In this document: in pieces, positions 3,207 through 63,347 of the stretch
Position numbering within the stretch: position 1 is the first letter of the stretch
Layout: the number at the start of each line of letters is the position of its first letter
Source: Parcubacteria group bacterium GW2011_GWC1_36_108
Lineage (GTDB): Bacteria > Patescibacteriota > Minisyncoccia > Moranbacterales > GWC2-37-73
Assembly: GCA_000991245.1 (NCBI GenBank)
Contig: LBRD01000003.1
Coordinates: forward strand, 6,734-70,733
Length of the DNA: 64,000 nt
Direction of reading: 5' to 3'
Position numbers and translations under genes: made by a program
The notes under the pieces: model-generated
Database searches by the model: none
What the model was told of the DNA's origin: nothing
What the model saw: the letters and a program-made list of their open reading frames with translations, nothing else

Positions 3207-3291
3207 AAAAGTTTTAAAGTTTTTAAAGTTATAAAGTTTTTAAAGTAAATTTCACACCTTTACCTTATGAACATTACAAACTTTACGAACA
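3207..3291. repeat. palindromic 9-bp-period array (GTTTTTAAA/GTTATAAAG words, then the inverted CTTATGAAC...TTTACGAAC)
   Basis: Direct reading. Confidence 0.65.
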
Positions 3292-3383
3292 AATTAAAGA
3301 TTTAGCTCACCACAACTTCGGCTATGTTATAATTCATCCTCGTTTGTCTTGAAGGTAATACCAATAAAATTAGAAAATAGTTC

Positions 3384-3418
3384 AAAAAACTGCCACCCTA
3401 TTGGGCGGCAGTTTTTTT
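3384..3418 (-). terminator. rho-independent terminator (bidirectional shape)
   Basis: CTGCCACCC-tatt-GGGCGGCAG between an A-run and a T-run, just downstream of minus gene 3435..3863. Confidence 0.7.
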
Positions 3419-3434
3419 GTTTTTGCTATATTTT

Positions 3435-3863
3435 TTATTGTTGTGCTTTTTGAGCTTGCTTCAAGGCTTTTGCTGCGAGTCTGGCAGCTTTTTTGGCTTC
3501 TTTGGCTGCGATTCTTTCTGCTTTGATTTTTTGTCTTTCAGCAATTTTAGCTTCTTTTGCTAGTCTTTTTGCTTCTTGTTTTTTCAAACGCTCAGCTTTT
3601 TTGATTTGCTGTGCTAATCTTTTTTCTTCCTGCTTTTTCAAAAGAGCGGCTTTTTTTGCAATTTGCGCTAGTCTTTTTGCTTCTTGTTTGGCTTTGATTG
3701 CTGCCAATCTTTCTGCTTGGCGTGCTTTGTTTGCTGCGAGTCGTTGTTGTTTTTTTGCTTGCGTGGTTGTTTCGGTTGTTGTTGTCGTTTCGTTTGCGCT
3801 AACAAACGTCACTGGGAAAGCAAATGCAACCATAAGGGCAATTGCCACGAGTTTTTTCTTCAT
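3435..3863 (-). CDS. secreted Lys/Ala/Glu-rich coiled-coil repeat protein
   Basis: Start moved to MKKKLVAIALMVAFAFPVTFVSA (signal-peptide-like). Reiterated KRLAQ/AKEAK motifs. The upstream extension in the track has no support. Confidence 0.6.
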   Translation of the reverse strand: MKKKLVAIALMVAFAFPVTFVSANETTTTTETTTQAKKQQRLAANKARQAERLAAIKAKQEAKRLAQIAKKAALLKKQEEKRLAQQIKKAERLKKQEAKRLAKEAKIAERQKIKAERIAAKEAKKAARLAAKALKQAQKAQQ

Positions 3864-4058
3864 TGTTTTTATTTTTAATAAATTACATCTGTTATTATAC
3901 AGCTTTGAAGCGAGAGCCACAAGGGAGTTGTGCACACCCGTCCGCATCGTCACGCGAGCAAGCTCGTTTGCCAGGGTCACATAAAATTTTTTAAATATTG
4001 TCTATAAATCAAATTTGCGCTATACTGGATAGGTAAATATTGAATAAATCAAACAATT

Positions 4059-5000
4059 ATGGAAGGTCAAAAACCGTTTATCTCAGTTGTCGTGCCTTTG
4101 TATAATGAAGAAGGAAATGTGAGGGAATTACACAAGCGTATTTTAGATGCGTGTGAAAAACTGGGAAAACCATTTGAAATTATCTTTATTGATGACGGTT
4201 CTAAGGATGAGACAATCAAAAATGCCCAAGGCTTGACTCCTCTTACTTTAATCAAATTTCGCAAAAATTTTGGACAAACCGCAGCTTTTGATGCTGGTAT
4301 TAAGCAAGCGCAGGGTGAGATTGTGATCACAATGGATGGAGATTTGCAAAATGATCCTGCTGACATCGGGCTGCTGTTATCCAAAATGGAAGAAGGATTC
4401 GATGTTGTTTCGGGTTGGCGTTTCAAGCGAAAAGATTCGTTGAGCAAAAAAATATTTTCACGTACTGCCAATTTGCTGCGAAAAATTCTGATTCAGGACA
4501 CGATTCACGATAGCGGTTGTTCTCTGAAAGCGTATAAACGAAATTGTTTCGAAGACGTTGATCTTTTTGGAGAGATGCATCGTTTTATGCCGGCATTGCT
4601 GGAACTTCAAGGGTATAAAATTGGTGAAGTGAAAGTGAATCATTATCCTCGCGTGCATGGCGTGACCAAATATAATTGGAAACGTGGGATGAAGGGTTTT
4701 GTGGATATGATTTCGATTTGGTTTTGGCGCAAATATTCCAACAGGCCGCTGCATCTTTTTGGTGGAACCGGCATCGTTGTTTCATTTTTGGGGACATTGG
4801 TTCTTGTTTGGATGGTGGTTGAGAAAATTTTCTTTGGCGCATCACTTTCAGAAAAAATATGGCCTTTGGTGGGAATCTTTTTGGTTCTCGTTGGCATTCA
4901 ACTTTTCGTGTTCGGACTTTTGGCCGATATTATGCTTAAGAATTATTACAAAGGACAAAAGAGGATGAATTACAATATCAAAGAAATTAGTCAAAGCTAA
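4059..5000 (+). CDS. GT2 polyprenol-phosphate glycosyltransferase (GtrB/ArnC-like)
   Basis: VVVPLYNEE...IFIDDGSKD...MDGDLQNDP, plus two C-terminal TM helices. Confidence 0.85.
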   Translation: MEGQKPFISVVVPLYNEEGNVRELHKRILDACEKLGKPFEIIFIDDGSKDETIKNAQGLTPLTLIKFRKNFGQTAAFDAGIKQAQGEIVITMDGDLQNDPADIGLLLSKMEEGFDVVSGWRFKRKDSLSKKIFSRTANLLRKILIQDTIHDSGCSLKAYKRNCFEDVDLFGEMHRFMPALLELQGYKIGEVKVNHYPRVHGVTKYNWKRGMKGFVDMISIWFWRKYSNRPLHLFGGTGIVVSFLGTLVLVWMVVEKIFFGASLSEKIWPLVGIFLVLVGIQLFVFGLLADIMLKNYYKGQKRMNYNIKEISQS

Positions 5001-5008
5001 TTTCTTAT

Positions 5009-5093
5009 TGTCATTCCCGTGAAAACGGGAATCCAGGACTGAGCCTAACTTGCGCGCAAACCTGGATCCCGGATCTGCTGTCCGGGACGACAC
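5009..5093. mobile_element. MITE-like hairpin element, family A copy 1
   Basis: GTCATTCCCGTGAAAACGGGAATCCAGG...CCTGGATCCCGGATCTGCTGTCCGGGACGAC. Three nested hairpins, with GTCAT / (G)ACGAC termini. Confidence 0.7.
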
Positions 5094-5106
5094 GAGTACA
5101 TGTCGA

Positions 5107-5175
5107 TTTCTTAACGCTCATCACTCGTTTTTTGCCTACGTACTTCATATGGTGCAAAGGGATGCGGGATACAAG
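5107..5175 (+). repeat. mosaic repeat: module C plus tail
   Basis: 5107-5156 matches 6677-6726 (50 nt, 2 mismatches). The tail ggtgcaaagggatgcgggataca matches 9446-9476. Confidence 0.75.
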
Positions 5176-6529: not shown

Positions 6530-6726
6530 ACTCATTTCCACATTTCTTTTTCCCGCAAAAAGAAACCTGGAGGAAAGAAAAGCTCGCACCTGATGAAGAT
6601 ACTGTGGCAAAAACTTCACTCTTCACTAAAATTTCTAACCGCCTCCGTCATTTTTGAAAATGACTCCGCGAAGAAATTTCTTAACGCTCATCACTCGTTT
6701 TTCGCCTATGTACTTCATATGGTGCA
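6530..6726 (+). repeat. mosaic repeat: module B (6530-6632), linker, module C (6677-6726)
   Basis: Module B is about 103 nt and nearly identical to 9341-9443. It contains the hairpin TTTCTTTTT-cccgc-AAAAAGAAA and starts 1 nt after the ugd stop. Confidence 0.8.
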
Positions 6727-7490: not shown

Positions 7491-7657
7491 CGTATTACCC
7501 CCTAAGTTTTTAAAGTGCATGGGCACTTTTTGGTATTTCAGCTATTATACACCTAAACGGGCAACGTGTCAATATGGGCGCCATTTTGCCCGCCTGCAAC
7601 GCTGTAGCACTGCGGGCAGGCCCTTGAGAAAGCGGAGAAAAGGTGGTAGGATGTAAT

Positions 7658-7788
7658 AGTTCATAAAGTTTTTAAAGTTCTTAAGGTTTATAAAGTAAAA
7701 TGCAAAAAGTTGTAAGGTTTTTAAGGTTTGTAAAGTTTATAATGTAAAATACAAAAAACTCCAAAGTTTATAAAGTTCATAAGGTAAA
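7658..7788 (+). repeat. 9-bp-period array, three sub-arrays each ending in GTAAAATRCAAAAA
   Basis: gttcataaa gtttttaaa gttcttaag gtttataaa ... read directly. Immediately upstream of four-helix-bundle gene 7794. Confidence 0.75.
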
Positions 7789-7793: not shown

Positions 7794-8144
7794 ATGGCGA
7801 AATTTGAGACATTTGAAGATATTGTTGCTTGGCAAAAATCAAGAATTCTTGTAACTGATATTTATCAAGTATTCAGAAGCAGCAAGGACTATTCTTTTCG
7901 AGATCAAATACAGAGAGCTGCAGTTTCAATTATGAATAATATCGCCGAAGGTTATGAAAGAAAAGGAAATAAGGAATTTGCAAAGTTTTTATATATAGCA
8001 AAAGGTTCTTGCGCAGAGGTTCGTTCAATGCTTTATCTCGCTCTAGATTTAAGATATATTAATAGGGAAGAATTTAATAACTTTTCTGAACAATCACTTG
8101 TAATTTCTAAGATGTTATCAAGTCTCATAAAAACATTGTGTTAG
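7794..8144 (+). CDS. four-helix-bundle protein (23S rRNA intervening-sequence protein family)
   Basis: 116 aa. Motifs QIQRAAVSIMNNIAEGYER and FLYIAKGSCAEVRSMLYLA. Confidence 0.8.
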   Translation: MAKFETFEDIVAWQKSRILVTDIYQVFRSSKDYSFRDQIQRAAVSIMNNIAEGYERKGNKEFAKFLYIAKGSCAEVRSMLYLALDLRYINREEFNNFSEQSLVISKMLSSLIKTLC

Positions 8145-8146
8145 GG

Positions 8147-8166
8147 ACTTTAAAAACTTTAAGAAC
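8147..8166 (-). repeat. short inverted 9-mer array (ACTTTAAAA ACTTTAAGA)
   Basis: Reverse complement of the words in 7658-7788. It closes an inverted pair around gene 7794..8144. Confidence 0.55.
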
Positions 8167-8172
8167 TATACT

Positions 8173-9339: not shown

Positions 9340-9340
9340 G

Positions 9341-9476
9341 ACTCATTTCCACATTTCTTTTTCCCGCAAAAAGAAACCTGGAGGAAAGAAAAGCTCGCAC
9401 CGGATGAAGATACTGTGGCAAAAACTTCGTTCTTCACTAAAATTGGTGCAAAGGAATGCGGGATGCGGAATACAAA
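9341..9476 (+). repeat. mosaic repeat: module B (9341-9443) plus tail
   Basis: Near-identical to 6530-6632, starting 2 nt after the GT4 stop. The tail matches 5151-5175. Confidence 0.8.
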
Positions 9477-15550: not shown

Positions 15551-17344
15551 ATGAATAATCCAATAGATAAAGAGTCTTTGAAGTCTTTGGTTGGGAGCAG
15601 ATTTTTTGTTGGAGCAATCTTGATTGCGATTTTGGCAGTTGGTGTTTTTTTGCGCGCATATAACTTTTCTGACTGGCAACATTTTGAACTTGATCAATCT
15701 CGCGATGCAAAGGTTATAGATTTGGCGGTGGAAAACGGAGTGGGGGATCTTCCTCTTTTGGGACCAAAGGCAGCGGGGTCATTTTTGCGTCTCGGTCCAA
15801 TATTTTATTATTTCGGTTATGTGAGCGCAAAAGTATTTGGTAACACGCCTTCTGGGATTGCTGTCATTTCACTCATTTTTTCTTGTTTAACGCTGCCCCT
15901 GTTTTATTTGTTTGTCAGAAGATTTTTTTCAAAAAAAATAGGACTTATGCTTCTAGGAGTTTTTTCCGTTTCAATTTTTCTTGTTCTGTACTCACGTTTT
16001 TCATGGAATCCTAATAATTTGCCATTTTTCATTTTGGGTGCACTTTATGGTCTCCTTCGTGCAACGGATGAGAATGAAAAAAGAAAAGGCTGGTGGTTGA
16101 TTGTAGGAGTTGTTTCTTTGACTATTGCAACTCAACTTCACTTTGTGGCTTTTTTGGGCTTGCCGATGATTGCCGTCGCGTATCTTCTAATAAAAAGACC
16201 TTTAATAAACTGGAAATATTGGCTGGCTTCTATCGCATGCATTGTTTTTTTGTATATTCCTTCGATAATAAATGATTTCAAGACAGGTGGTTCAAATATT
16301 ATTGAATTTGAAAAAGTGTTCGCAAAAACATCCACCAAGGGCGAGCATACTCTTGTTGAAAAAATAATAAGAAACATCGACAAGAGTTCGGCTGGATATG
16401 TCTTGCTGATAAGTGGAAATTCACAGGCCGAATTGCCAAAGGTGAAGATTCCAAGAATACGACCAATTTTTACATGTGATGAGGATTGCAAAAAAGGTGT
16501 CCCAATGGGAATTTTTTCACTATTCTTTGCTATTATTGGAAGTGCACTTTTGGGTTGGAATATTTTCAAAACAAAAGAAACTTCGCGCAGAGATTTTTTG
16601 ATCATCGTGGCTATTTGGGTATTGGTTACGCTGGCACTTTTTACTCCGATTTCATATGATATGGCTCCAAGATTCTTTCTGCTGGTTGCTCCGATCCCAT
16701 TTGTTTATTTGGGGCTTATTTTGGATTTTTTTGAAAAAAGAAAAGCCAGTGTTCTTTCTTGGGTTTTCGTTTTGATTCTCTTGGCTTCAAATGGCTGGCT
16801 TGTTAAAGAAAGATTTAGCGAACTTGCAAATGCTCCCGTTAAAGAATTTGAGATATCTTCGGACAAAATTCTCAAAGAAAACGAACGAGTAACCCTTGAG
16901 CAACAGCTTCTGATTACCAAATATATTGAAAGTATTTATAATCAAAACAACTTTCCAGTTTATGTTAATAGTGAGGCATTTTATCGCAGATCATTTTTGT
17001 ATCATCTGGAACAACGTTTGATAGTTCGCGATGATTTTCGCAATACCAGAAGTGTTTATTCTGAGGGAAATTATTTTTTGGTGTATCCATCTTCTTCAAC
17101 TGTGGAAAAAATTTATGAAAATTATCAGGATAAATATGATATTGCTGAAATCAAGGAATTTGGCACGCTTAGAGTTGTGCGCTTGCTTCCAAAATTGCAA
17201 ATGATAACAGCGGTGCGTCAGGAATTTGCTCCAGCAAGAAAACCAATCAGCGCTCCTGGCGTGCCAGTGCGTTGTCGTTGGAATGAAATTTTTTCCCAAT
17301 GTAATAGTGACGGAACGGAGGCGGAGGATGAAAGTAGTTTATAA
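15551..17344 (+). CDS. GT-C family membrane glycosyltransferase (ArnT-like)
   Basis: FLRAYNFSDWQHFELDQSRD...LLGPKA...GPIFYY, paralogous to the N-terminus of 10433..13147. Confidence 0.7.
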   Translation: MNNPIDKESLKSLVGSRFFVGAILIAILAVGVFLRAYNFSDWQHFELDQSRDAKVIDLAVENGVGDLPLLGPKAAGSFLRLGPIFYYFGYVSAKVFGNTPSGIAVISLIFSCLTLPLFYLFVRRFFSKKIGLMLLGVFSVSIFLVLYSRFSWNPNNLPFFILGALYGLLRATDENEKRKGWWLIVGVVSLTIATQLHFVAFLGLPMIAVAYLLIKRPLINWKYWLASIACIVFLYIPSIINDFKTGGSNIIEFEKVFAKTSTKGEHTLVEKIIRNIDKSSAGYVLLISGNSQAELPKVKIPRIRPIFTCDEDCKKGVPMGIFSLFFAIIGSALLGWNIFKTKETSRRDFLIIVAIWVLVTLALFTPISYDMAPRFFLLVAPIPFVYLGLILDFFEKRKASVLSWVFVLILLASNGWLVKERFSELANAPVKEFEISSDKILKENERVTLEQQLLITKYIESIYNQNNFPVYVNSEAFYRRSFLYHLEQRLIVRDDFRNTRSVYSEGNYFLVYPSSSTVEKIYENYQDKYDIAEIKEFGTLRVVRLLPKLQMITAVRQEFAPARKPISAPGVPVRCRWNEIFSQCNSDGTEAEDESSL

Positions 17345-17392
17345 AGTTTGTAAAGTTATAAAGTTCATAAAGTTTATAAAGTTCATAAAGTT
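17337..17392 (+). repeat. 9-bp-period array (GTTTATAAA/GTTCATAAA x6)
   Basis: Direct reading. It generates the fake KFIKFIKFIK N-terminus of track ORF 17226. Confidence 0.75.
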
Positions 17393-17399
17393 AAAAAAT

Positions 17400-18926
17400 A
17401 TGAAAAAGACATTTCTTATCTTGTTTGCCATCATAATTCTGGGTGCTTTTTTGCGCTTTTATAAATTGGGAGAACTTTCTTTTGTGGCGGATGAATTTTT
17501 GGATATGAATTCTTCCTATGCTTATGCTCAAACTGGAACTTGGCAATCCTGGGATTTTAATCGTGGAGTTGTTAATGTGGAAAATGAATTTGCACCGCGC
17601 GATGAAAGAGCATGGCCATATAAGATTCAAGTTGCCAAACTGTTTGGTTTTTTTGCTCCGACTGAAGAGGTGGCAAGGAGTATTAGTGCGGTGTGGGGAA
17701 TCTTGAGTATTATCCTAATTTTTTTCGTGGCAAAATATTTTACTAGGAAAAATTCAATCGGACTTCTCAGTGCATTTTTGTTTGCAATAAGTGTCAGCGG
17801 AATCATTTTTGACAGACGTCTTCGAATGTATGCAATGTTCTTCCCATTTTTTCTGCTTTTCTCTTGGTTGACGTATAAATTTTTTGAGGAATCTTATGGA
17901 GGCAAGCTCAGGGTTTTTAAATATGTAAATGAAAAAATAGGTGTAAATTTGAAATATATCCTGCCAATGCTTCTGTCAGGATCGATGAGTCTGAAGATTC
18001 ATGATTTGACGGTCAGTATGGTTGCTATCTTTACTACATATGTCTTTATTATGACAACCAAGACTTTCTTGGAAAAAAAGACATTCATTTGGAATAAATA
18101 TTCTGTGACATTAAGCGTTGTCTTGGTCGCTGCTGCAGGAATTTTTACTTTTGCATCTGAAAAGATTGGAATGTATGCAGCTGGTATAAAATTTTTCAAC
18201 GACAATTTTAGTTATTTTTCAATAGTTACTTCGGACTATAGCCATCCATTGTTGGCACTTTTGTTTTTTGTTGCCGGTATTTATTATCTGGCGGTGCATA
18301 AAAAACTTTCCAAGGAGGGAATATGGCTGGCAGTTTCTTTTTTGGTTCCGCTTTTAATGGCAGTATTTTTGTGGAGGAGAAATGCGGGCGCCCAATATAT
18401 TTTCTTTGCTCAGTCTTTTGCTATTATCTTGATTGCATCTGGTGTTTACGGTGCAGCAAAATTTTTCAAAAATAATCTCGAGACTTTTTCTGCAAAAAAA
18501 GTATATTTCGTGACCATTGCCTTATCTCTGATGCTTTTGCCAAACTACGCATATTTTTTTCAGGAGAACAACGCTTACAGCCAGACTTCAGCAGCTGAAA
18601 ATCCGAATTATCGAAGCATCTTCACATATTTCAAGAAGAAAAAAATCGATGGCGATGTTCTGATAACAAGAAATTTTCGAAACTATTATTGGAGTGGACA
18701 AAATGTGAAAGTGATTGACTTTGGTGGGGAATTGGCTGAAGAAAAATTTTCATTAGCCCAACTTACAAATGTCGTGAATGAAAATAAGACAGGTTGGGTA
18801 ATTCTTTCCGACAATGATGACCGCTACATTTCAAATGAGGCTTCTGTTTATATGCAAGAAAATATGACCAAGATAAATGATATTGCAGTGCGAGGAAACG
18901 TGCTGGTTTACAGATGGGGGATGTAA
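17400..18926 (+). CDS. GT-C family membrane glycosyltransferase (GT39/GT83-like)
   Basis: Start moved to MKKTFLILFAIIILGAFLRFYKLGE. Polytopic. Confidence 0.7.
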   Translation: MKKTFLILFAIIILGAFLRFYKLGELSFVADEFLDMNSSYAYAQTGTWQSWDFNRGVVNVENEFAPRDERAWPYKIQVAKLFGFFAPTEEVARSISAVWGILSIILIFFVAKYFTRKNSIGLLSAFLFAISVSGIIFDRRLRMYAMFFPFFLLFSWLTYKFFEESYGGKLRVFKYVNEKIGVNLKYILPMLLSGSMSLKIHDLTVSMVAIFTTYVFIMTTKTFLEKKTFIWNKYSVTLSVVLVAAAGIFTFASEKIGMYAAGIKFFNDNFSYFSIVTSDYSHPLLALLFFVAGIYYLAVHKKLSKEGIWLAVSFLVPLLMAVFLWRRNAGAQYIFFAQSFAIILIASGVYGAAKFFKNNLETFSAKKVYFVTIALSLMLLPNYAYFFQENNAYSQTSAAENPNYRSIFTYFKKKKIDGDVLITRNFRNYYWSGQNVKVIDFGGELAEEKFSLAQLTNVVNENKTGWVILSDNDDRYISNEASVYMQENMTKINDIAVRGNVLVYRWGM

Positions 18927-18980: not shown

Positions 18981-19008
18981 AAAAAAGACTCTTCACGAGT
19001 CTTTTTTT
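18981..19008. terminator. bidirectional terminator hairpin
   Basis: AAAAAAGACTC-ttcac-GAGTCTTTTTTT between convergent genes. Confidence 0.6.
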
Positions 19009-19053
19009 GGAATGCATTTTTTGCTATATGCTATATGCTATATGTTTTATGAT

Positions 19054-20583: not shown

Positions 20584-20589
20584 CGAAGA

Positions 20590-46431: not shown

Positions 46432-46434
46432 GGA

Positions 46435-46553: not shown

Positions 46554-46743
46554 AGCTAACACGGCATATCTGGTTCAGAAATTTTTCACTTTTATACTTT
46601 TTAACGCCAAGGTTTGAAAAATTTCCTCTCCCAAATTGCGCTGTGATATGGCAAAGTTTAGTGATATAATTAAGGCAGGCAGAAAGTTGAAGTTTTAGCC
46701 AATGAATATGGGCGCAACTTCAGATGATGCCGATACGTTGTCG
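46554..46743 (+). other. attC-like folded site 3
   Basis: AGCTAAC, then GGCATATCTG pairing with CAGATGATGCC (one bulge); GAAATTTTTCA/TGAAAAATTTC; CCCAAATT; GTTGTCG. Confidence 0.5.
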
Positions 46744-46803
46744 GAAATATCAAAAAACAAATTCATTAATATTTTTTTCAAGCCCTTTTGAAATTCAGGT
46801 AAA

Positions 46804-49064: not shown

Positions 49065-49101
49065 ATGTTTTTGCGGGGATTATCTTAATAATTTTTTATT
49101 G

Positions 49102-49238
49102 TTAGGACTTACGCACTTTCTCAACGATTTCTTTTTTGGCACGCTTTTGGATAAATACTCACTATCCAAAAACTCAAAGAGTCGCTGTCGCCAACAATTG
49201 GCCAAAAAAGAAATGTTTCGAAATGCGTAACTTCTGAA
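49102..49238 (+). mobile_element. TIR element D, full copy
   Basis: TTAGGACTTACGCACTT...AAATGCGTAACTTCTGAA. Track ORF 49080..49274 lies inside it. Confidence 0.8.
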
Positions 49239-49326
49239 TTTGTTTATTTTACCAGTAGGGGATGGTAAAAGCAAAGATGTTATTCAAAAAGGTTGATTTA
49301 ACGCTAAAAGCTGTTATAATAGGGCA

Positions 49327-49866
49327 ATGCAAAAGAAAAAAATATTTGTTGAAATAGAGGTTCCCGGACAGTTAAAAAGACGGTTGGCTCAGATTATAGC
49401 CAAGTGGTCTGATTTGCCGATCAAATGGATGAAAGAGGAAAATTTGCACATCACTGTGTCTTTTGTGGGATATGTTGATGAAAGCGTGCTGCCTGAAATT
49501 TGTCAAAAAGTCAGAGTGGCTGTGGAAAACTTTGAAGCTTTTGATTTGGAATTTGACCGCATCGAACTTGGACCAAATCCTGCTGATCCCAAAACAGTTT
49601 GGCTCACGGGACAGCCTTGCAGTGAGCTTGGCGTGCTTAATGAACAAGTCGAGCGAGCTCTTGGAATGAGACCGGAAACACACAAGGAATTTCGACCGCA
49701 CATCACGCTGGGGCGCATTCGCAAGCTGAAATGGGATGAACTTGTCGAAAAGCCTGAAATTTCTGAGAAAATTAATGTTTCAATGACGGTGGACAGTCTT
49801 TCGATTATGGAAAGTAAAGGCGGGGGAGCGGAATATGTTTCGTTGGAAGAATGTTCGCTGGCGTAA
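49327..49866 (+). CDS. thpR: RNA 2',3'-cyclic phosphodiesterase (2H phosphoesterase, ThpR/LigT)
   Basis: Two HxT/S motifs: LHITVSF and PHITLGR. Confidence 0.8.
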   Translation: MQKKKIFVEIEVPGQLKRRLAQIIAKWSDLPIKWMKEENLHITVSFVGYVDESVLPEICQKVRVAVENFEAFDLEFDRIELGPNPADPKTVWLTGQPCSELGVLNEQVERALGMRPETHKEFRPHITLGRIRKLKWDELVEKPEISEKINVSMTVDSLSIMESKGGGAEYVSLEECSLA

Positions 49867-49870
49867 AATA

Positions 49871-49906
49871 GTTCGTAAGGTTATAAGGTTTGTAAAGTTC
49901 ATAAAG
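49871..49906 (+). repeat. 9-bp-period array (4 words) abutting the next start codon
   Basis: gttcgtaag gttataag gtttgtaaa gttcataaa gta-ATG. Confidence 0.65.
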
Positions 49907-49908
49907 TA

Positions 49909-50646: not shown

Positions 50647-50654
50647 TTAAAAAA

Positions 50655-50736
50655 TGTCATTCCCGTGAAAACGGGAATCCAGAACCGAGTCTAGCTGAAG
50701 AGCTAAACTAGATTCCGGATCAAGTCCGGAATGACA
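50655..50736. mobile_element. MITE-like hairpin element, family A copy 5
   Basis: TGTCATTCCCGTGAAAACGGGAATCCAG...GATTCCGGATCAAGTCCGGAATGACA. Confidence 0.75.
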
Positions 50737-50743
50737 ATGAAAT

Positions 50744-53668: not shown

Positions 53669-53697
53669 AAATGCAGCTTATTTTTTGTAGCCAAACT

Positions 53698-53740
53698 AAA
53701 CATATAAATTATTTTGTATTTATATGTTTTTATTTTTTAT
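53698..53740 (+). terminator. terminator-like hairpin
   Basis: AAACATATAAAT-N8-ATTTATATGTTT followed by a T-rich tract. Confidence 0.5.
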
Positions 53741-53809
53741 ATACAAAGGGGTTGTGCGACATTAAAAAGGGCGGACCAATCTTAGTAGAGGATTGTTATT
53801 TATCGCCGC

Positions 53810-53879
53810 TGTCATTCCCGTAAAAACGGAAATCTGGAACTAGGCATCACTCTGGATCCCAGTTAAGCCGAAGATGACA
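53810..53879. mobile_element. MITE-like hairpin element, family A copy 6 (short)
   Basis: TGTCATTCCCGTAAAAACGGAAATCTGG...CTGGATCCC...GATGACA. Confidence 0.65.
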
Positions 53880-54588
53880 ATGTGCGCTTAGCTCATTATT
53901 CAAATTATTTTTTGTAATTTTTCAAAAAATTTTAAAATTTATTTTTTTTAAATTTTTATAGATAATAACATTTAAATGTATGTCCGTAGTTGGTATATTA
54001 GAGATAGCAAAAAGACCTCTTATTTTGCTCTAGAAGCTTTGTATTTGATTAATCTATATACAGACACTAGAAGTAATAAAATATACAATCCTGGGGCAAA
54101 AACAGCTAAAATACACCCCAAAAAGAGCTTAAAATGACCTCCAAATTATGGCTTAAACAAGCCATAAAACGACGCTCAAAATTGACCTGTAAGGCCCCTT
54201 TGGGTAAAAAGTGGTATACGTATACCTCCTAATATGGCTTATCTTAGGCATTATTTCACGATTATGTTAAAAATGAGATATTATTTAAGAAATCTCAAAA
54301 AAGGAATATGATTATTGAAATTATCAGATATGGTTTTGGAGAGTATTTGATTGGTTGAGCAGAGTAATAGCATCAGTAGATTGATAGTAGGGTTAAATAT
54401 GAATACAAAAGATATTATTGGATAGTTGGTGGTATATGACTAACTGATGTTCTATTTGTATTATATGTCGTAAAAGATATAATGTGCGACATTGTATATA
54501 TTTATAAATAAGGTGTCTTCTACCCTATTTATATATCAAAATGTAGAGATGTGTGCAGATTGAAGTAATTAATTTTTGAATTTAAAAA

Positions 54589-56926: not shown

Positions 56927-56929
56927 AAT

Positions 56930-56962
56930 AGGTTTTAGGTATTAGGTTTTAGTTTTTAGGTT
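56930..56962 (+). repeat. AGGTTTTAGGT word array
   Basis: Direct reading. An inverted partner lies at 57819-57856. Confidence 0.6.
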
Positions 56963-56992: not shown

Positions 56993-57385
56993 CTAGTTTT
57001 TTATTAGGTCACTTAATTTCATCCCGTACAGTGTTTTTTTAATTTGCACTCCTAATTTATTCCAAACAACACTTGATGGACATTTATGCTCGCTGGAACA
57101 GAATTTTCCTACACAGCGCATTGGCGCAATATCTCCATCCAAAAGTTCTATGATCTCGCCAACCGGAATTTTTTTTGGGTCTTTCGATAACACATAACCA
57201 CCCTGTTTTCCTTTTGAGCTTTGTACCACTTCCCCATTTCGAAGGATTCCCATCAGTCTCTCAAGATATTTTTGAGAAATATTTTCTTGACTGGCAATCT
57301 CGCCTATTGTTTTTTGGGCTGGATAACATTGAGCCAGGTTAGTCATAGCCTTAAGTCCATATTCTGCTTTAGTGGAGAATCTCAT
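56993..57385 (-). CDS. Rrf2 family transcriptional regulator (IscR-like)
   Basis: Start moved to MRFSTKAEYGLKAM. Cys cluster CVGKFCSSEHKC. Lies upstream of NifS-NifU. Confidence 0.8.
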   Translation of the reverse strand: MRFSTKAEYGLKAMTNLAQCYPAQKTIGEIASQENISQKYLERLMGILRNGEVVQSSKGKQGGYVLSKDPKKIPVGEIIELLDGDIAPMRCVGKFCSSEHKCPSSVVWNKLGVQIKKTLYGMKLSDLIKN

Positions 57386-57420
57386 ATTTTTATTAATGTC
57401 TACTAAATTAGTATACATTC

Positions 57421-57538: not shown

Positions 57539-57745
57539 ATGGAAAAAATTTTATTGTGTCCAGATTGTCTGGACAATGATGAAAGAAAAATCATAGGGTG
57601 TGAGGATAGTGGAAGAAAAAAAGAGTGTCTTTGGTGTAGCGCTAAAGACAAGGCAAATTGTCCCCAGCACAAGACACCCCTTATTTTCTTTGCTAATCCA
57701 GGTTTGCGATGTGATCCTTGTGATGAAATAAGGAATATTTGGTAA
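57539..57745 (+). CDS. Cys-rich small protein (zinc-ribbon-like)
   Basis: AGGAGGAG SD. CPDC...C...CLWC...C...CDPC. Confidence 0.55.
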   Translation: MEKILLCPDCLDNDERKIIGCEDSGRKKECLWCSAKDKANCPQHKTPLIFFANPGLRCDPCDEIRNIW

Positions 57746-57818: not shown

Positions 57819-57856
57819 TATCACCTAAAACCTAGCACCTAATCACCTAAAACCTA
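57819..57856 (-). repeat. inverted ACCTAAAAC word array
   Basis: Reverse complement of the words at 56930-56962. Confidence 0.6.
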
Positions 57857-57861: not shown

Positions 57862-58992
57862 ATGCGTTTATCATATTCAGCACTCGATAGTTTTCAAAAT
57901 TGTAGTTTGAAATATAAATTTCAAAATATCGACAAAATTAAAGAACCCAAAAGCAAAGAAGCTGTTTTTGGAACGCTTGTTCATGGCACGATGAAATTTA
58001 TTCATAATCCTTCTTTACTACCCCCGAAATTGGAAGATGCTTTGGATTATTTTTCCAAAAATTGGAACAGTGATGTTTTTGAAGATGAACTTGAAGAACG
58101 CAGCGCTTTTTCAATGGGTGTGGCGATGATTCAACAATATTATAAAAATAATATTGTTTCTGAATATAATATTGTTGATTTGGAAAGCAGGTTTGCTATT
58201 GAAATAATAGATCCTAAAAATGGAGCTAACCATACTATTTCCGGTATTATTGACCGTATTGATAAAACAGAAGATGGCTATGAAATTATTGATTATAAGA
58301 CAACCAAAAAAATGCCTTCGCAAGACAAGGTGGATAATGATTTGCAGCTATCAGTTTACTTGAACGCATTTTTGGCTCGCTACCCAAAAGAAGCTGCAAA
58401 TCTGGATAAGATTACCGTTAGCCTTTATTATCTCAAGCACGGCGTAAAATTGAGCTCACAGCGTTCACTTGAACAACTTAAAAATGCAAACCAACTTTTC
58501 CTAGATGTTATTGCGGAAATTGAAAAAGGAATTTTCGTGCCTAATGTTACTCCACTTTGCGATTGGTGTGGTTTTCAAAAGATTTGTCCGATGTGGAAGC
58601 ATAAATTTAAGGAGGAGAGAAAAATTGATAGTGAAGAAATTAATGCTGCCATTGGTGATTATATCAATCTTAAATCAGCTATTGCTTCTACCAAAACTCA
58701 GTTTGCTGAGCTGCAAGAAAAAATTACCAAATATATGGAGCAAGAAGGTGTTGAAAGAGTTTTTTCTGATGAAGGAATCATTGCTCAGACACTGCGCAAG
58801 ACCTATAAATATGATGAAAAACAACTTCGTGAAATTCTGGAGCCTCTGGATAAATGGGAGTCAGTCCTCAAGGTTGATGGCATCGCACTGAAAAATATTA
58901 TGAGTGTGCTGCCGGTCAGCACGCGGCAGGACGTTGAACGCGCCCGCGTTTTAGATAAAGAAAGCAAGAGTTTGACTATCAAGAAGAAATGA
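57862..58992 (+). CDS. PD-(D/E)XK nuclease (RecB/Cas4/AddB-nuclease-like, with Cys cluster)
   Basis: IIDRID...YEIIDYKT nuclease core. C...CDWCGFQKIC Fe-S-type Cys motif. Confidence 0.75.
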   Translation: MRLSYSALDSFQNCSLKYKFQNIDKIKEPKSKEAVFGTLVHGTMKFIHNPSLLPPKLEDALDYFSKNWNSDVFEDELEERSAFSMGVAMIQQYYKNNIVSEYNIVDLESRFAIEIIDPKNGANHTISGIIDRIDKTEDGYEIIDYKTTKKMPSQDKVDNDLQLSVYLNAFLARYPKEAANLDKITVSLYYLKHGVKLSSQRSLEQLKNANQLFLDVIAEIEKGIFVPNVTPLCDWCGFQKICPMWKHKFKEERKIDSEEINAAIGDYINLKSAIASTKTQFAELQEKITKYMEQEGVERVFSDEGIIAQTLRKTYKYDEKQLREILEPLDKWESVLKVDGIALKNIMSVLPVSTRQDVERARVLDKESKSLTIKKK

Positions 58993-59536: not shown

Positions 59537-59551
59537 TTGAATATATTTCAA

Positions 59552-59577
59552 AAAAGCCGATCAATTGATCGGCTTTT
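59552..59577. terminator. bidirectional terminator
   Basis: AAAGCCGATC-aatt-GATCGGCTTTT between convergent genes. Confidence 0.7.
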
Positions 59578-60286
59578 AAAATTTTAAATATTTTTCCCAA
59601 TATTGATACAGCGCCTTGGTGGCTTGCAAGTCCCCTACATTATATTTTGCAATGTCGAGAAATCTTTTTTCCTTGAAAAGTTGACCAACGTCATCGCTGG
59701 AAATCCCTTCTTCTTTGGGACTTTTGATGCCAAAAGCTTTGCTCCAGAGATGCAAGTTTCCTTTGCGACGAACTGCACCATAAAAAGTTAATTGATCGAG
59801 TAAATCGATATGTTTGGCATTTTGCGGCTGGCTTGAGAGATATCGATTAGCCATTAAATTTTTAGTCGGACGTATTTTATTAATAGCACTTCTGACAAAT
59901 AAAAAAGGCACATCGAATGTGCGCCCGTTAAAGCTGACAAATTCATCATACTTTTCAGCCAAGTTCCAAAATTGCGCCAGCATTTCTTTTTCGCCCAAAA
60001 CTCTGAATTTTATATTGCCATCTTCATAATCAGAAACGCCACCATCTGGCGCTTGAAAATACACTGCGCCTTTGTCCTTTTCAACATCATACACTCCAAT
60101 AGCCACAATTTGCCCCGTAAGTGGCGAAAAACAAAGCCCATTTTTCACTTCTGCCAATTCTTTTTCGTATTCTTCATCCGAAGTTGTCTCTTTCTTGATC
60201 CAACGGGTAAGCGCTTCCTGTGAAATTTCATCCAGCAAGTTAAAATCATCCCCGATTGTTTCAATATCAAATACTAATTTCCCCAT
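59576..60286 (-). CDS. RNase H-like 3'-5' exonuclease (PolB-exonuclease-like DEDDy)
   Basis: FDIET (ExoI), SFNGRTFDVPFL (ExoII), YNVGDLQAT (ExoIII). Confidence 0.7.
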   Translation of the reverse strand: MGKLVFDIETIGDDFNLLDEISQEALTRWIKKETTSDEEYEKELAEVKNGLCFSPLTGQIVAIGVYDVEKDKGAVYFQAPDGGVSDYEDGNIKFRVLGEKEMLAQFWNLAEKYDEFVSFNGRTFDVPFLFVRSAINKIRPTKNLMANRYLSSQPQNAKHIDLLDQLTFYGAVRRKGNLHLWSKAFGIKSPKEEGISSDDVGQLFKEKRFLDIAKYNVGDLQATKALYQYWEKYLKF

Positions 60287-61490: not shown

Positions 61491-61533
61491 AAAGAGCTCT
61501 GCGCGAGAATCATCGTGCAGAGCTCTTTAATTT
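61491..61533 (+). terminator. rho-independent terminator
   Basis: AAAGAGCTCTGC-N14-GCAGAGCTCTTT followed by a T-rich tract. Confidence 0.65.
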
Positions 61534-61544
61534 TTCAAAAAAAG

Positions 61545-61579
61545 AAAAAAGGCAACAGAGAAATCTCTATTTGCCTTTT
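61545..61579 (-). terminator. second hairpin terminator (serves the minus strand)
   Basis: AAAGGCAAcAGAGA-aa-TCTCTaTTGCCTTTT with A/T runs on both sides. Confidence 0.55.
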
Positions 61580-61815
61580 CGTTCGCCTTAGCATAGTTTT
61601 TTGATGAAATCTAGGGTGAGATCGCTCAAACCTTAAATTGCGGGTTCAATTGATGCAGGCCGTTCGAATCATGCTTACTATACTGGCTTCCACGTTCGTG
61701 GAAAATACGTTTAATCTCACCCCTATTTTTTATTTTTCCCCAATACTTGGGCTGGCAGTCCAGTTTCCATCATTCAGGGTGAGTAAGACAGAGTTCGCCA
61801 ACTCGATCGTCTTAA
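61546..61815 (-). ncRNA. candidate structured RNA of unknown class (about 270 nt)
   Basis: ORF-poor. Minus-strand promoter-like TTTGCA-16-TATAAT (61849-61822) and a terminator at 61545-61579. Several hairpins and mutually exclusive GGGTGAG/CTCACCC pairings. Confidence 0.3.
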
Positions 61816-61821
61816 AACGAT

Positions 61822-61849
61822 ATTATAACATTACTAGAAAATATGCAAA
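61822..61849 (-). promoter_or_regulatory. promoter-like TTTGCA-16-TATAAT
   Basis: Directly after the stop of 61856..62440. Confidence 0.4.
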
Positions 61850-61855
61850 TTTAAT

Positions 61856-62440
61856 TTATTCCCACTTGCCTACCTTAAAAAATGAAAGTCTGAGGGTTTT
61901 ATCGATGCTATCCTCATTGAAAGTTATAATGTAATCAACTTCCACGTTGTTAGGAAAATTTTTCAATGCAAGATTTTCATTTATTGATTTATCCGTATGA
62001 ATCCAGCAATATTGGTAATTCTTTACAACAAGAAGCGCGGCATCTGTTTCTTGTAGTGTTTTAGGATTATCAAAAGCACTAGGCTGAATACCTCCAAATT
62101 TACTTACGCGAATATTTTTCCACTTGGATTTATTTTGCATATCACAAATAGAACTTGCTATGTTAAATGTCAACCCCTGTTTCTTTTTATGATCAACGAT
62201 AGAATTTACACTGTTGCCCCAAAGAAGATCAAAAAAATCCCCGAATTTATTAAGCAGCTCCGGATAATTTCTGCTTAAAAAATAGAAAAATTTAGCTTCC
62301 TCCATGATTTCATACACAAAACATTCCATCCTTTTCATTAACCTTATTCGCATTTTACCTTCCAAGATTATGCCTATTAGTTTTAAAAGAGCCTTTGCCA
62401 ATTTTTCCGAACATCCGTCCATGCGGTTCGTTGTTTCCAT
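61856..62440 (-). CDS. hypothetical protein
   Basis: AAGGAGGCACAAA-ATG strong SD. 194 aa, no recognised motif. Confidence 0.55.
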   Translation of the reverse strand: METTNRMDGCSEKLAKALLKLIGIILEGKMRIRLMKRMECFVYEIMEEAKFFYFLSRNYPELLNKFGDFFDLLWGNSVNSIVDHKKKQGLTFNIASSICDMQNKSKWKNIRVSKFGGIQPSAFDNPKTLQETDAALLVVKNYQYCWIHTDKSINENLALKNFPNNVEVDYIITFNEDSIDKTLRLSFFKVGKWE

Positions 62441-62558
62441 TTTGTGCCTCCTTGGGCAATGGGATTTTTACTTCTGAATACAAACTAGCATAGATACACA
62501 AAAAAACAACCCTCTTGAGTTGTTTTTCTAGAAAGCTAAGAAGCTAATGCCTAATAAG

Positions 62559-63251
62559 CTATTTTATCATTGTTCCCACAAATTTCTCCCCATCCAAATA
62601 TCTCTGAAAGTTGTTCATTTTTTTGCCGTTTAAAATTGCAACCTCAATCCCCTCTTTGGCTGCCATTTTGGAAGCGATTGGATCAAATGGAACATTGGAG
62701 CCTGGATCCCAAGTTTCGCCGACTATTTTTTGAAAATCATTCCAATTTATTTCTTTGATTCTTTTGGCATCTTTGTGTTTCTTTGGATCTTTGTCACAAA
62801 CGTAATCAATATTGGAAAGGTTGGCAATTTTTTTAACATCAAAATGCTTAGCCAGCAGCACTGCAATATAATCCGTGGAATTTCCAGGTTTATATCCAGC
62901 CGCAACCAAAACTGATTCTTTGGCTTTTAAAAAACTTTCCAAATCATATGGATTTTTGTTAATCGTCGGATGTGCATATTTCTTGAAAATAGTTCGGATG
63001 AAATGTGCATTCATTCTGGTGGCATGAATCCCAATCCAATCCTTGTCTTCATCATCAATATCGCCCACTTTTGCGCCAGCTTCAATATATTTTCTTGCAG
63101 TCTTCCCCCCGCCAGTAATGATAATAAAACGAAAACCTTTGACAATTCCATCCTCAATAACTTTTTTAAATTGCTTAACAAATTTCCAATCAATTTCTTC
63201 CGGTACAATTAATGAACCACCAAGTGAAATAACGATTGTTTTTTTGTTCAT
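62559..63251 (-). CDS. pyrH: amino-acid-kinase-fold UMP kinase (archaeal-type PyrH)
   Basis: VISLGGSL..., IIITGGGKTAR, 230 aa without the long bacterial PyrH N-terminus. Confidence 0.7.
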   Translation of the reverse strand: MNKKTIVISLGGSLIVPEEIDWKFVKQFKKVIEDGIVKGFRFIIITGGGKTARKYIEAGAKVGDIDDEDKDWIGIHATRMNAHFIRTIFKKYAHPTINKNPYDLESFLKAKESVLVAAGYKPGNSTDYIAVLLAKHFDVKKIANLSNIDYVCDKDPKKHKDAKRIKEINWNDFQKIVGETWDPGSNVPFDPIASKMAAKEGIEVAILNGKKMNNFQRYLDGEKFVGTMIK

Positions 63252-63347
63252 AAGGTATAGTTGTAAAGTTCATAAAGTTTGTAAGGTTCATAAAGTATTT
63301 TTGTAATTCCACTTTATAAACTTTTGACTTTATAACTTTATAAACTT
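63246..63347. repeat. palindromic 9-bp-period array with loop ATTTTTGTAATTCC
   Basis: Forward words 63246-63296, inverted words 63311-63347. Confidence 0.75.

Follow-up and report, generated by a model that had tools for sequence, protein, structure and literature searches.

The 9-mer word arrays scattered through the window (the whole stretch of DNA analysed, 64,000 nucleotides) are probably, at a likelihood of about 60%, the arms of fold-back repeat elements of IVS-like build, which are selfish or near-neutral and turn over between genes. A full element consists of a forward word array, a PF05635 (IVP / S23p / Avd-like) gene, and an inverted word array, inserted between ordinary genes and not in rRNA; most copies in operon spacers are either hairpins without cargo or half elements, i.e., single arrays with no partner. 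What is new here is the array context, i.e., a 9-mer stem around a PF05635 IVP gene.

Word arrays, palindromes and IVP genes in the window

A search for two or more tandem units of RGTTN1-2TAA revealed 13 arrays of the GTT(N1-2)TAAR word at eight loci, nine of them forward (on the plus strand) and four inverted. Markov-1, -3 and -5 simulations of the window predict 0.01-0.02 such arrays. All 13 are located in intergenic DNA, which makes up 14.5% of the window; when all tandem arrays with periods of 6-10 are considered, 16 out of 19 are intergenic. The array sequence was the same in three independent assemblies, and the arrays are therefore not an assembly artefact. The eight loci listed in an earlier note on this DNA all contain GTTYATAAR-type arrays. 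The strict periodicity it claimed does not hold, because a quarter of the units (11/45) are 8-mers, and 8147-8166, which it listed as a locus of its own, is the inverted partner of 7656-7684, with a gene in between.

Four loci are palindromes, with a forward array followed by an inverted one, and all four lie between co-directional minus-strand genes, as had been reported. Their predicted folding energies range from -15 to -24 kcal/mol (z-scores from -1.9 to -5.1). The palindrome at 3210-3291 (forward 3210-3246, degenerate inverted arm at ca. 3262-3291; dG -16.9, z -2.3) is located just upstream of a minus-strand gene (2570-3202). The one at 21309-21387 (forward 21309-21347, inverted 21360-21387; dG -18.9, z -3.8) separates the RtcB and Tmk-like genes, both on the minus strand, and the one at 29261-29341 (forward 29261-29290, inverted 29306-29341; dG -15.1, z -1.9) separates a UDP-glucose dehydrogenase gene from a small minus-strand gene. 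The palindrome at 63259-63346 (forward 63259-63296, inverted 63327-63346; dG -23.6, z -5.1) has minus-strand neighbours on either side, namely a gene for a 102-aa protein and an AA_kinase (PyrH-like) gene. Two forward arrays on the plus strand are solitary. One, at 17336-17392 (6.4 units), constitutes the entire spacer between two co-directional plus-strand PMT_2-type genes, and its region (17330-17405) has some self-pairing (z -3.5); the other, at 49870-49907, fills the 42-nt LigT-WecG spacer and gave no significant fold.

The loop sequence, considered conserved in the earlier note, was recovered in part. Good matches, with 0-1 mismatch, are present at 7693-7708 and 7742-7757, and a gapped copy at 21349-21364, in this genome only; 63297-63310 is just loosely similar. 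The loop of the 21309-21387 palindrome reads GTAAATACAAAAACAC on the minus strand. When up to three mismatches are allowed, the motif is found 15 times versus 13.2 expected, i.e., with no excess over chance, and loops in other genomes differ from it.

The IVP-1 element carries a gene in the loop of its 9-mer stem. Its 5' arm region (7658-7785, plus strand) is composed of arrays 7658-7696, 7708-7737 and 7765-7785, which contain a 49-nt higher-order repeat; a GTAAAATRCAAAAA tail follows each of the first two (7693-7708, 7742-7757). The outermost array pairs with 8141-8169, and the arms 7656-7684 and 8141-8169 form a 29-nt stem that is 90% complementary. The gene (7794-8144, plus strand) codes for a 116-aa four-helix bundle of PF05635 (E 4.6e-36), an Avd-like "23S rRNA intervening-sequence protein", with 5631 homologues at E<=1e-20. 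Its structure matches, PDB 2gsc (1.8e-13) and 2rld (8.9e-8), were both deposited with five chains. The inverted array that constitutes the 3' arm (8147-8167, minus strand) stops 5 nt short of the ATG of a GT4 glycosyltransferase gene (8173). The orthologous site is without the IVP-1 element in three relatives.

A second IVP element (408-916, minus strand) has arms at 408-499 and 866-916 made of AATTTCAAA / ATATCAAAT words. The AATTTCAAA-family arms enclose the IVP-2 gene (500-865, minus strand; PF05635, E 2.1e-16), and the closing stem is present in both the MFE and the centroid folds. A cargo-less palindrome of the AATTTCAAA family is found between two minus-strand genes at 20589-20721 (arms of 56 nt, 71% complementary, 21 nt apart). 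Each of the two IVP genes of the window is thus located inside inverted arrays of a separate word family, and each family has cargo-less copies. Between arrays of a third family, (TAGGTTT)n at 56929-56962 and inverted (CACCTAA)n at 57822-57856, there are a minus-strand gene for an Rrf2 regulator (56993-57418) and an ORF of 68 aa (57539-57745). Arrays of ACATRT / GCTAYAT words (34150-34229, plus strand) have a forward-inverted layout in the spacer preceding a gene with a probable start at 34227, and a related (TGCTATA)n array is present at 19022-19059. The additional word families suggested earlier (second, third, and ATATGCT-type) are real.

IVP genes, array polarity and turnover in other genomes

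The association between IVP genes and inverted arrays extends beyond the window. When IVP loci from metagenomes were examined, the sequence upstream of the gene could be aligned (SW>=30) with the reverse-complemented downstream sequence at 49 out of 67, versus 0 out of 56 shifted control loci and none in shuffles. In these flanks, AAAGT was counted 247 times upstream but 18 times downstream of the gene, and ACTTT 14 and 195 times, respectively. None of the 20 IVP loci with inverted array flanks that were checked is inside rRNA. The same 9-mer arms surround Moranbacteria and Patescibacteria IVP genes (L030, L215-L217). The words differ between lineages: IVP genes between inverted arrays of other words are found in cultured Nostoc, Anabaena 90, and Calothrix and on Riemerella plasmids (the words are ACAGGTG in Anabaena 90, GGGTGTA in Calothrix, and GGGAAAA in Nostoc). 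The 9-mer word, in the form of a 23-nt array pattern, recurs across many phyla, in at least 120 stretches of genome sequence, but in only seven viral contigs; an IVP gene adjoins the array in only 4 out of 120 genome loci selected by array. Neighbouring opposite arrays are convergent in 42 cases and divergent in none. Three size classes can be distinguished among their spacers, 0-35, 70-95 and ca. 345-415 nt, the last of which corresponds to the IVP gene. The orientation of solitary arrays relative to transcription is unbiased in other genomes (28:24).

The comparison of orthologous spacers that the earlier note called for revealed that related Moranbacteria differ in arrays at the same sites: there is a one-unit copy change, a swap to another word family, or no element, in which case the spacer is 5-40 nt long. 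In relative L212, a third-family word stands in place of the 9-mer palindrome at the RtcB-Tmk spacer, and a relative (94% by RtcB) has the same spacer without the 17336-17392 array. Unit slippage would lengthen and shorten the arms, and whole elements are gained, lost, or swapped for other word families at the same spacers in close genomes; therefore, the elements behave like selfish or near-neutral REP/MITE-like DNA. The idea of a mobile palindrome family agrees with this dispersal and fast turnover, but no transposition footprint was seen. Target-site duplications were not evident by eye at element ends, and a scan of ca. 38 window proteins revealed neither a transposase or RAYT nor a reverse transcriptase. 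Mobility can therefore be inferred only from presence and absence at orthologous sites.

Transcribed and paired, the arms would form a 20-40-bp A/U-rich duplex, an expected RNase III substrate by analogy with Coxiella, Leptospira, and Salmonella IVS. Cleavage at such duplexes would split the polycistronic transcript and set the IVP mRNA free. The earlier suggestion of RNase III-type hairpins gains from a build like that of RNase III-processed 23S rRNA IVS, with IVP genes inside the stems, while the cleavage itself is proposed by analogy. Arm complementarity was the same within one locus and between unrelated loci (0.899 versus 0.899), and non-Watson-Crick positions of the sense transcript had no bias towards G-U over A-C (13:10 and 7:7). 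There is thus no signal of RNA-stem selection beyond word sharing, and neither locus-specific nor strand-specific selection for pairing was seen. A benefit or a cost of the elements to the host can only be inferred.

Comparison with known systems

The IVS of Coxiella has a 28-bp terminal stem with the S23p ORF in the loop, and its 5' arm contains 2-3 tandem GACAGAT heptamers, strain-variable in number, the first of which is cut by RNase III (PMC4990558). The elements described here resemble 23S rRNA IVS (Coxiella burnetii, Leptospira) in the PF05635 ORF, which almost fills the loop of a long terminal-inverted-repeat stem, in the variable number of tandem words in the stem arm (heptamers in Coxiella), and in a sporadic distribution reminiscent of horizontal transfer. 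They differ in being located between protein-coding genes and not in helix 9, 25, or 45 of 23S rRNA, in their arms, where an A/T-rich word of 8-9 nt forms longer arrays, in the dominance of cargo-less and half copies (eight loci versus one IVP for the 9-mer in 64 kb), and in that RNase III cutting is, for them, a prediction.

Cyanobacterial STRR sequences and the heptamer SSR arrays of Xanthomonas (GGGAATC) and Nostoc (GGGGAYT) described by Rehm et al. 2015 (PMC4692102) are also tandem 7-9-nt words of ca. 3-14 units, nearly all intergenic and mostly between co-directional genes, with many convergent inverted pairs. In Anabaena 90, Calothrix, and Nostoc, such heptamers bracket IVP genes. The Xanthomonas arrays are intergenic, convergent-paired, transcribed, and length-variable; heptamer arrays are transcribed from either strand, and their length differs between close relatives (PMC4692102). 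The published reading is a G-quadruplex, which the 9-mer, with one G per unit, cannot form, and the publication draws no link to IVP genes (its text does not contain "S23", "four helix", or "intervening").

REP / REPIN sequences with RAYT are likewise short extragenic palindromes, dense in operon spacers and quickly gained and lost, with a single-copy gene between inverted copies of a genome-dispersed repeat. Here, however, the flanked gene codes for a PF05635 four-helix bundle and not for an IS200/IS605-type Y1 transposase, and the arms are variable-number tandem words with no fixed ca. 35-nt palindrome. REPs are species-specific, whereas the 9-mer word is common to several phyla. Foldback (FB) transposons and MITEs share long terminal inverted repeats of short tandem subrepeats, variable or absent cargo, and a prevalence of small non-autonomous copies; FB elements are eukaryotic, and the target-site duplication and transposase were not found for the elements described here.

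Alternative readings of the arrays

We consider it unlikely that the arrays are sites recognized in trans by a protein, for which the IVP pentamer encoded in full elements would be the most plausible candidate. Every IVP paralogue would then have a word of its own to bind, in RNA or DNA, and it would regulate itself through its flanks and act on all dispersed copies, like REPIN-RAYT or, in diversity-generating retroelements, Avd. A gene flanked by its own dispersed repeat matches the REP/RAYT arrangement, with two IVP genes and two families; one word is kept across phyla, as expected of a binding site; solitary arrays persist without a pairing partner; and the PDB relatives have five chains, while PF05635 is homologous to Avd, a nucleic-acid-binding DGR factor (PMC10053308). 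The nearest IVP-1 relatives mostly have AAAGT-core words and remoter IVPs have other words, but this correlation is noisy, with host phylogeny as a confounder, and even within a cluster some IVPs come with unrelated words. In addition, the S23p of Coxiella has been suggested to be decaying and not made in vivo (PMC4990558), and a rigid pentamer would be difficult to fit onto a mixed 8/9-nt period. Classical iterons, proposed earlier, are disfavoured by the 8-9 bp period, the absence of a replication gene, and the scattering of arrays through operons.

It is quite improbable that the palindromes act as intrinsic terminators or attenuators of an A/U-rich type, perhaps in both directions, and so tune operon read-through; terminators were among the candidates listed in the earlier note. 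The stability of the hairpins, their location between co-directional genes, and the 5' A-run and 3' T-run (e.g., AAAAGTT...AACTTTT at 21306-21396 and 63252-63352) suit such a role. Yet the stems have no G+C-rich core, a terminator scan gave none at the arrays, loops are 12-30 nt long (ca. 360 nt with an IVP gene inside), and solitary arrays have no hairpin, while GC-rich canonical terminators do occur in the window where operons end (e.g., 18985-19013 and 59550-59575). The 3' arm stops 4-12 nt ahead of the next start codon, and efficient termination would thus leave that gene (e.g., the PyrH-like one) no room for a promoter; the same spacers of relatives do without the element.

Microsatellite-like slippage of A/T-rich spacers, with no common origin, no link to IVP, and a palindromic look that is a by-product of a nearly self-complementary word, is very improbable. 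Single-unit copy changes between close relatives, the lack of cis-specific compensation and of G-U bias, and the self-pairing of even a solitary array (17330-17405) agree with it, and over-representation of bacterial heptamers has been ascribed to polymerase slippage (PMC4692102). It is largely refuted by the simulations (ca. 0.01 arrays versus 13 observed), the word common to distant phyla, the strongly non-random IVP flanks (49/67 versus 0/56), and the 42:0 convergent polarity, not expected of independent slippage events; whole word families also swap at one site. Finally, there is hardly any likelihood that the arrays are promoters or UP-like elements for the downstream gene. Though they are A/T-rich, with TATAAA-like hexamers directly upstream of start codons and a tail, TAAAAT, similar to a -10 box, the orientation of solitary arrays in other genomes is unbiased, and neither palindromic symmetry nor an enclosed IVP gene is a feature of promoters. 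A σ70 scan gave only one weak match touching an array (9/12, at 21301). The scan also detected a perfect TTGACA-17-TATAAT at 30835, in a divergent region.

Word arrays and enclosed IVP genes in the window

A regular expression requiring at least two consecutive GTT(N1-2)TAAR units found 13 arrays in the window (G+C content, 36%), which belongs to a Candidate Phyla Radiation (CPR) bacterium of the Moranbacteria/Parcubacteria group. Nine arrays are forward on the plus strand and four are inverted, and such units were present at every locus for which an earlier note on this DNA had reported them. The arrays were checked against base composition: windows simulated with Markov-1, -3, and -5 models are expected to hold 0.01-0.02 arrays, versus 13 in the real one. 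All 13 are intergenic, as are 16 of the 19 tandem arrays with a period of 6-10 in the window, of which intergenic DNA makes up 14.5%. This one word family occupies eight loci in 64 kb, all of them intergenic, and further copies occur in related genomes. The strict periodicity previously claimed did not hold, since the 45 units comprise 34 9-mers and 11 8-mers; the most frequent units, GTTCATAAA, GTTATAAA, and GTTTATAAA, contain one G each.

Four palindromes, each a forward array followed by an inverted one and each lying between co-directional minus-strand genes, were recovered as described in that note. Their folding energies range from -15.1 to -23.6 kcal/mol (z-scores of -1.9 to -5.1). For two solitary arrays and for the triple array that precedes position 7794, folding is no better, or only weakly better, than that of shuffled sequences. 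The conserved loop ascribed to the palindromes was borne out in part: it is present at 7693-7708 and 7742-7757 and, with one gap, at 21349-21364, but is weak at 63297 and not conserved in other genomes. An identical copy of one protein encoded in the window occurs in each of NCBI assembly GCA_000991525.1, a JGI metagenome from Rifle groundwater, and an ENA assembly. Over 7.5 kb that include two arrays, these three show no base difference, and the arrays are therefore not assembly artefacts. No array variation was detected between the near-identical strains L001-L003. We conclude that the arrays are genuine and of greater interest than low complexity would be.

Two PF05635 genes in the window are enclosed by inverted word arrays. 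The ORF at 7794-8144 (plus strand; IVP-1) codes for a PF05635 protein, annotated as "23S rRNA intervening-sequence protein" (E 4.6e-36), and the ORF at 500-865 (minus strand; IVP-2) matches the same family (E 2.1e-16), with a sub-threshold match to SOG2. Homologues of the IVP-1 query at E<=1e-20 fall into 5631 clusters, and a protein of "Parcubacteria group bacterium GW2011_GWC1_36_108" matches the window IVP at 100% identity. The structural-genomics proteins 2gsc and 2rld, with five chains deposited for each, are related to IVP-1, and the accessory protein Avd of diversity-generating retroelements (DGRs) also belongs to PF05635 (PMC10053308). NCBI records of window IVPs (P0121, P0149, P0155) are named "30S ribosomal protein S23" or "Ribosomal protein S23"; both labels are a misnomer inherited from the literature on intervening sequences (IVSs) of 23S rRNA.

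The IVP-1 gene is looped out by a forward arm at 7656-7684 and an inverted arm at 8141-8169, which are 29 nt long and 90% complementary, and the closing stem is present in both the minimum free energy and the centroid folds. Because 8141-8169 pairs with 7656-7684 and closes this element, 8147-8166, formerly counted as a locus of its own, is the 3' arm of the stem. The IVP-2 gene lies between arms at 408-499 and 866-916 built of inverted AATTTCAAA / ATATCAAAT words (pairing segments 413-482/864-910), with a closing stem that likewise appears in both folds. This second word family, said to behave like the 9-mers, does so: in addition to enclosing the IVP-2 gene, it has a palindromic copy without cargo at 20589-20721. 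An Rrf2 gene and a small ORF lie between (TAGGTTT)n at 56929 and the inverse of this array at 57822, which make up a third family. No ORF is present in the cargo-less palindromes or in the solitary arrays.

Bracketed IVP genes, gene-less arrays and their turnover

A profile scan of metagenomes with an alignment of four IVPs yielded 487 relatives. Among the best 80 loci, nearly every IVP gene had a forward array upstream and an inverted array downstream. For the 67 loci with 150 nt available on both sides, the upstream flank was aligned to the reverse complement of the downstream flank; a score of at least 30 was reached at 49 of the 67 loci, at none of 56 controls shifted by 700-900 nt, and by no shuffled sequence. 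The pentamer AAAGT occurs 247 times upstream versus 18 times downstream of IVP genes at these 67 loci, and ACTTT 14 times upstream versus 195 times downstream. Arm words vary from locus to locus (GTTTATAAA, GTCTATAAA, GTTGAAA, GGTTGAAA, AGAGTGTAT, GGGTGGTT, and others). No rRNA was detected by an Rfam scan in any of 20 related IVP loci.

Plasmid-borne IVP genes of cultured organisms were bracketed by inverted words in four of the six cases inspected, the arm words being STRR-type heptamers: GGGAAAA / CCCTTTT in Nostoc ATCC 53789, ACAGGTG / CACCTGT in Anabaena 90, GGGTGTA / TACACCC in Calothrix NIES-22, and AAGGTTY in Riemerella anatipestifer. Three Moranbacteria IVPs (loci L215-L217), 69-74% identical to IVP-1, have 9-mer arms like those in the window, as does an IVP from another Patescibacteria locus, L030. 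At L217, the 9-mer of the IVP arms recurs in four further spacers within 20 kb; at L215, one IVP gene lies within two nested 9-mer stems. Covariation between IVP sequence and word is no more than suggestive and is confounded by phylogeny. We found no paper tying IVP genes to word arrays outside rRNA in the searchable literature, which covers few subscription journals, and literature matches to the words themselves were at chance level. The tie of word arrays to PF05635 genes across phyla is the new part of this work.

The 9-mer itself is widespread. A 23-nt pattern, AAGTTYATAARGTTYATAARGTT, matched at least 120 stretches in a set of species-representative genomes, versus an estimated ca. five chance matches in the whole collection at A/T-rich composition. 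Carriers include Bacteroidales isolates (Butyricimonas, Odoribacter), Flavobacteriales, Ignavibacteria, many Patescibacteria, Firestonebacteria, Elusimicrobiota, Nitrospinae, Anabaena, and Microcoleus. The pattern was present in only seven viral contigs, and a phage origin was rejected. At the fetched loci, 114 of 118 array clusters lie outside long ORFs, and neighbouring arrays of opposite orientation are always convergent (42 pairs, with no divergent pair). Spacing of the convergent pairs falls into three classes: 0-35 nt; 70-95 nt, corresponding to a G+C-rich three-hairpin core in Butyricimonas and Odoribacter; and ca. 345-415 nt, corresponding to an IVP gene. Among the matches listed, an IVP gene adjoins the array at 4 of 120 array-selected loci, which rules out an IVP gene beside every array; gene-less copies are therefore the great majority.

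The conserved core of the Bacteroidales palindromes, ca. 75 nt long and G+C-rich, was observed in Butyricimonas muris and Odoribacter sp. (L021 3680-3760, L049 5365-5435, L051, L057, L078 6510-6585, L109). Its hairpins are ACGGGTGTCCTTCGGACA, CGGCAGC..GCTGCCG, and GCGCCCCGCGGGG; it occurs in either orientation and in several copies per genome. No Rfam family matched the arrays or these cores. In other phyla, composite or nested arms were seen in which other words (CTATTGC, AACTAAC, GCTGGAT, GGCATTA, CACTCTA) abut 9-mer arrays end to end (L016 6195-6240, L024 1-110, L032 7630-7668, L011 1223-1260, L100 1511-1550). Arrays are located exactly at contig ends in many metagenome-assembled genomes (L007, L011, L014, L019, L031, L033, L093, L116, L117), and at L026 4730-4830 an array adjoins a run of N at a scaffolding gap. 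The 9-mer arrays appear to break short-read assemblies, and their abundance is therefore probably underestimated.

Turnover was followed in the glycosyltransferase / RtcB / Tmk region, where gene order is conserved among relatives with 89-94% identity in RtcB (that of the window shares 94% identity with a Moranbacteria protein). A comparison of orthologous spacers, suggested earlier as a check for gain and loss, revealed changes in unit number, replacement of word families, and element-free spacers. The RtcB-Tmk spacer holds a 9-mer palindrome in both the window and its relative L211, with a difference of one 5' unit; a 9-mer palindrome of GTTTTTAAA units with a similar loop in L214; a TAGGT-word array in L212; and a palindrome of AAATCCAAA words, a family occupying at least four spacers of that genome, in L213. 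Element-free versions of the compared spacers measure 5-40 nt. L211 lacks the solitary array found at 17336. Three relatives have no part of the IVP-1 gene-carrying element as a whole ahead of their orthologous GT4 gene: in one, the spacer contains a solitary 9-mer array, in another it is 21 nt long, and in the third it carries (GATCCAT)n.

Candidate roles and relation to known systems

Several roles had been proposed for the arrays. As terminators, they would have T-runs after the 3' arms in their favour; the stems are A/U-rich and devoid of a G+C-rich core, the loops measure 12 to ca. 360 nt, the 3' arm ends 4-12 nt before the next start codon, and a terminator scan placed canonical terminators at convergent gene ends (for example, 18985-19013) and none at the arrays. 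An iteron role did not stand either: the period is 8-9 bp, no rep gene is nearby, and the arrays are scattered in biosynthetic operons. Promoter function was rejected, the arrays being poor sigma-70 matches (a perfect promoter is found at 30835). Nor was an RNA of a described family detected: at gathering thresholds, the window gave no rRNA or other Rfam match, array-bearing loci gave tRNAs only, and the matches at IVP loci were a single tRNA and a single cobalamin riboswitch. The stems, 20-40 bp long with ca. 85% Watson-Crick and 5% G-U pairs, are compatible in length with RNase III cleavage, and we infer such processing. Compensation between arms was not detected (pairing of 0.899 at the same locus and 0.899 between unrelated loci), G-U was not enriched over A-C among sense-strand mismatches (13:10 and 7:7), and the forward orientation of solitary arrays with transcription seen in the window was not a rule elsewhere (28:24). 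Because these tests were negative, the pairing potential is attributed to both arms consisting of the same word. The negative results argue against a finely tuned RNA structure and fit selfish or neutral DNA whose transcript still forms a long duplex. As to MITE-like mobility, the elements have terminal inverted repeats. A scan of ca. 38 window proteins revealed no transposase family, and no target-site duplication was apparent by eye at the ends inspected, although A/T-run ends could hide one of 2-3 nt.

The elements are best filed, as a variant, with IVS elements, intergenic heptamer arrays, and REP-like palindromes. The Coxiella 23S rRNA IVS, called a "selfish element," is 428 nt long, and its 28-bp terminal stem closes a loop that contains the S23p ORF. 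The 5' arm contains two to three tandem GACAGAT heptamers, a number that varies between strains, and the first of these is the RNase III cleavage site (PMC4990558). Like it, the two full elements described here carry a PF05635 ORF and are closed by a long terminal inverted-repeat stem; unlike it, they lie between protein-coding genes and not in helix 9, 25, or 45 of 23S rRNA. In Xanthomonas, ca. 186 intergenic GGGAATC arrays, with 70-75 convergent pairs, are transcribed and variable in length; they were interpreted as G-quadruplex formers, and IVP is not mentioned in that paper (PMC4692102). The arrays studied here resemble these and STRR heptamer repeats in being tandem, intergenic, and convergent in pairs, with lengths that differ between relatives, but the A/T-rich 9-mer lacks G-tracts and cannot form a G-quadruplex. 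Hairpin architecture, not the G-quadruplex, is therefore the common denominator. GGGAATC, GGGGAYT, and GACAGAT were not found in the fetched loci beyond one chance-level match. REP/REPIN-RAYT systems share the dense, dispersed extragenic palindromes; there, the flanked genes code for a Y1 (IS200/IS605-like) transposase and not for PF05635 proteins.

The 23S IVS and its orphan S23p ORF, the cyanobacterial STRR and Xanthomonas heptamers that have been a puzzle for 35 years, and the very large PF05635 family have until now stood apart. A common architecture seems to unite them: a small gene looped out by an inverted-word stem and accompanied by many gene-less copies. If this holds, G-quadruplexes cannot account for such arrays in general, IVSs are not confined to rRNA, and word repeats play a major part in shaping the intergenic space of streamlined CPR genomes. 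A further-reaching reading, to which we give roughly one chance in five, is that IVPs and their cognate word arrays form a two-part system across bacterial phyla. An Avd-like IVP pentamer would recognise the word of its own arrays, either in RNA or in single-stranded DNA. By doing so it would promote or guard the dispersal of fold-back arrays among operon spacers, and its partner might be a reverse transcriptase, of the host or of DGR type, or a nuclease specific for hairpins. Were this two-part system real, STRR, Xanthomonas heptamers, rRNA IVSs, and the 9-mers would constitute one mobile or RNA-processing class, and the large orphan PF05635 family would gain a function.

Other repeats and neighbouring genes

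A separate G+C-rich palindromic family (tgtcattcccgtgaaaacgggaatcc ... ggatcc..gatgaca; ca. 90-110 nt) was observed in other operon spacers of the window (5001-5100, 24250-24356, 24711-24850, 40850-40940, 50647-50743, 53800-53885) and in L212 (4116-4322, 6623-6738). It occupies different spacers of the same operon in relatives and is therefore MITE/REP-like and independent of the word arrays. One copy lies within 53669-54588, a stretch of 920 nt without an ORF of at least 80 aa that also contains long inverted repeats (54129-54166/54233-54270 and 54062-54089/54491-54518). A repeat of ca. 60 nt (actcatttccacatttctttttcccgcaaaaagaaacctggaggaaagaaaagctcgcacc) is found in three copies directly past gene ends (6530-6592, 9340-9400, 38945-38987), and a taggacttacgcattttctcaacgatttcttttttggcac... 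family at 37438-37594, 49090-49250, and, as the reverse complement, 2470-2569. A small repeat, gtagagcgagngaaatgaaaa...ttttcatttccgagccgagg, occurs in or beside word-array elements and IVP genes on unrelated contigs (L213 4195-4260, L156 1010-1100, L196 1745-1830).

Three gene-free leaders of ca. 400 nt (43111-43527, 44431-44853, 46432-46760) share several conserved blocks in one order (for example, CATATCTGGCT...GTCAATTTC...CTTCAGATATGGGC) that are 60-84% identical. The leaders have no Rfam match, and the genes that follow them (DUF4116, GT2, Bro-N) are unrelated; a repeated module, either a structured RNA or a regulatory one, could account for them. Genes for RNA or DNA end processing are frequent in the window: RtcB ligase, LigT 2'-5' RNA ligase/phosphoesterase, PD-(D/E)XK nuclease, and PolB-like 3'-5' exonuclease (21397-22896, 49327-49866, 57862-58992, 59576-60286). 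The RtcB and LigT genes directly adjoin 9-mer arrays, which may be a coincidence.
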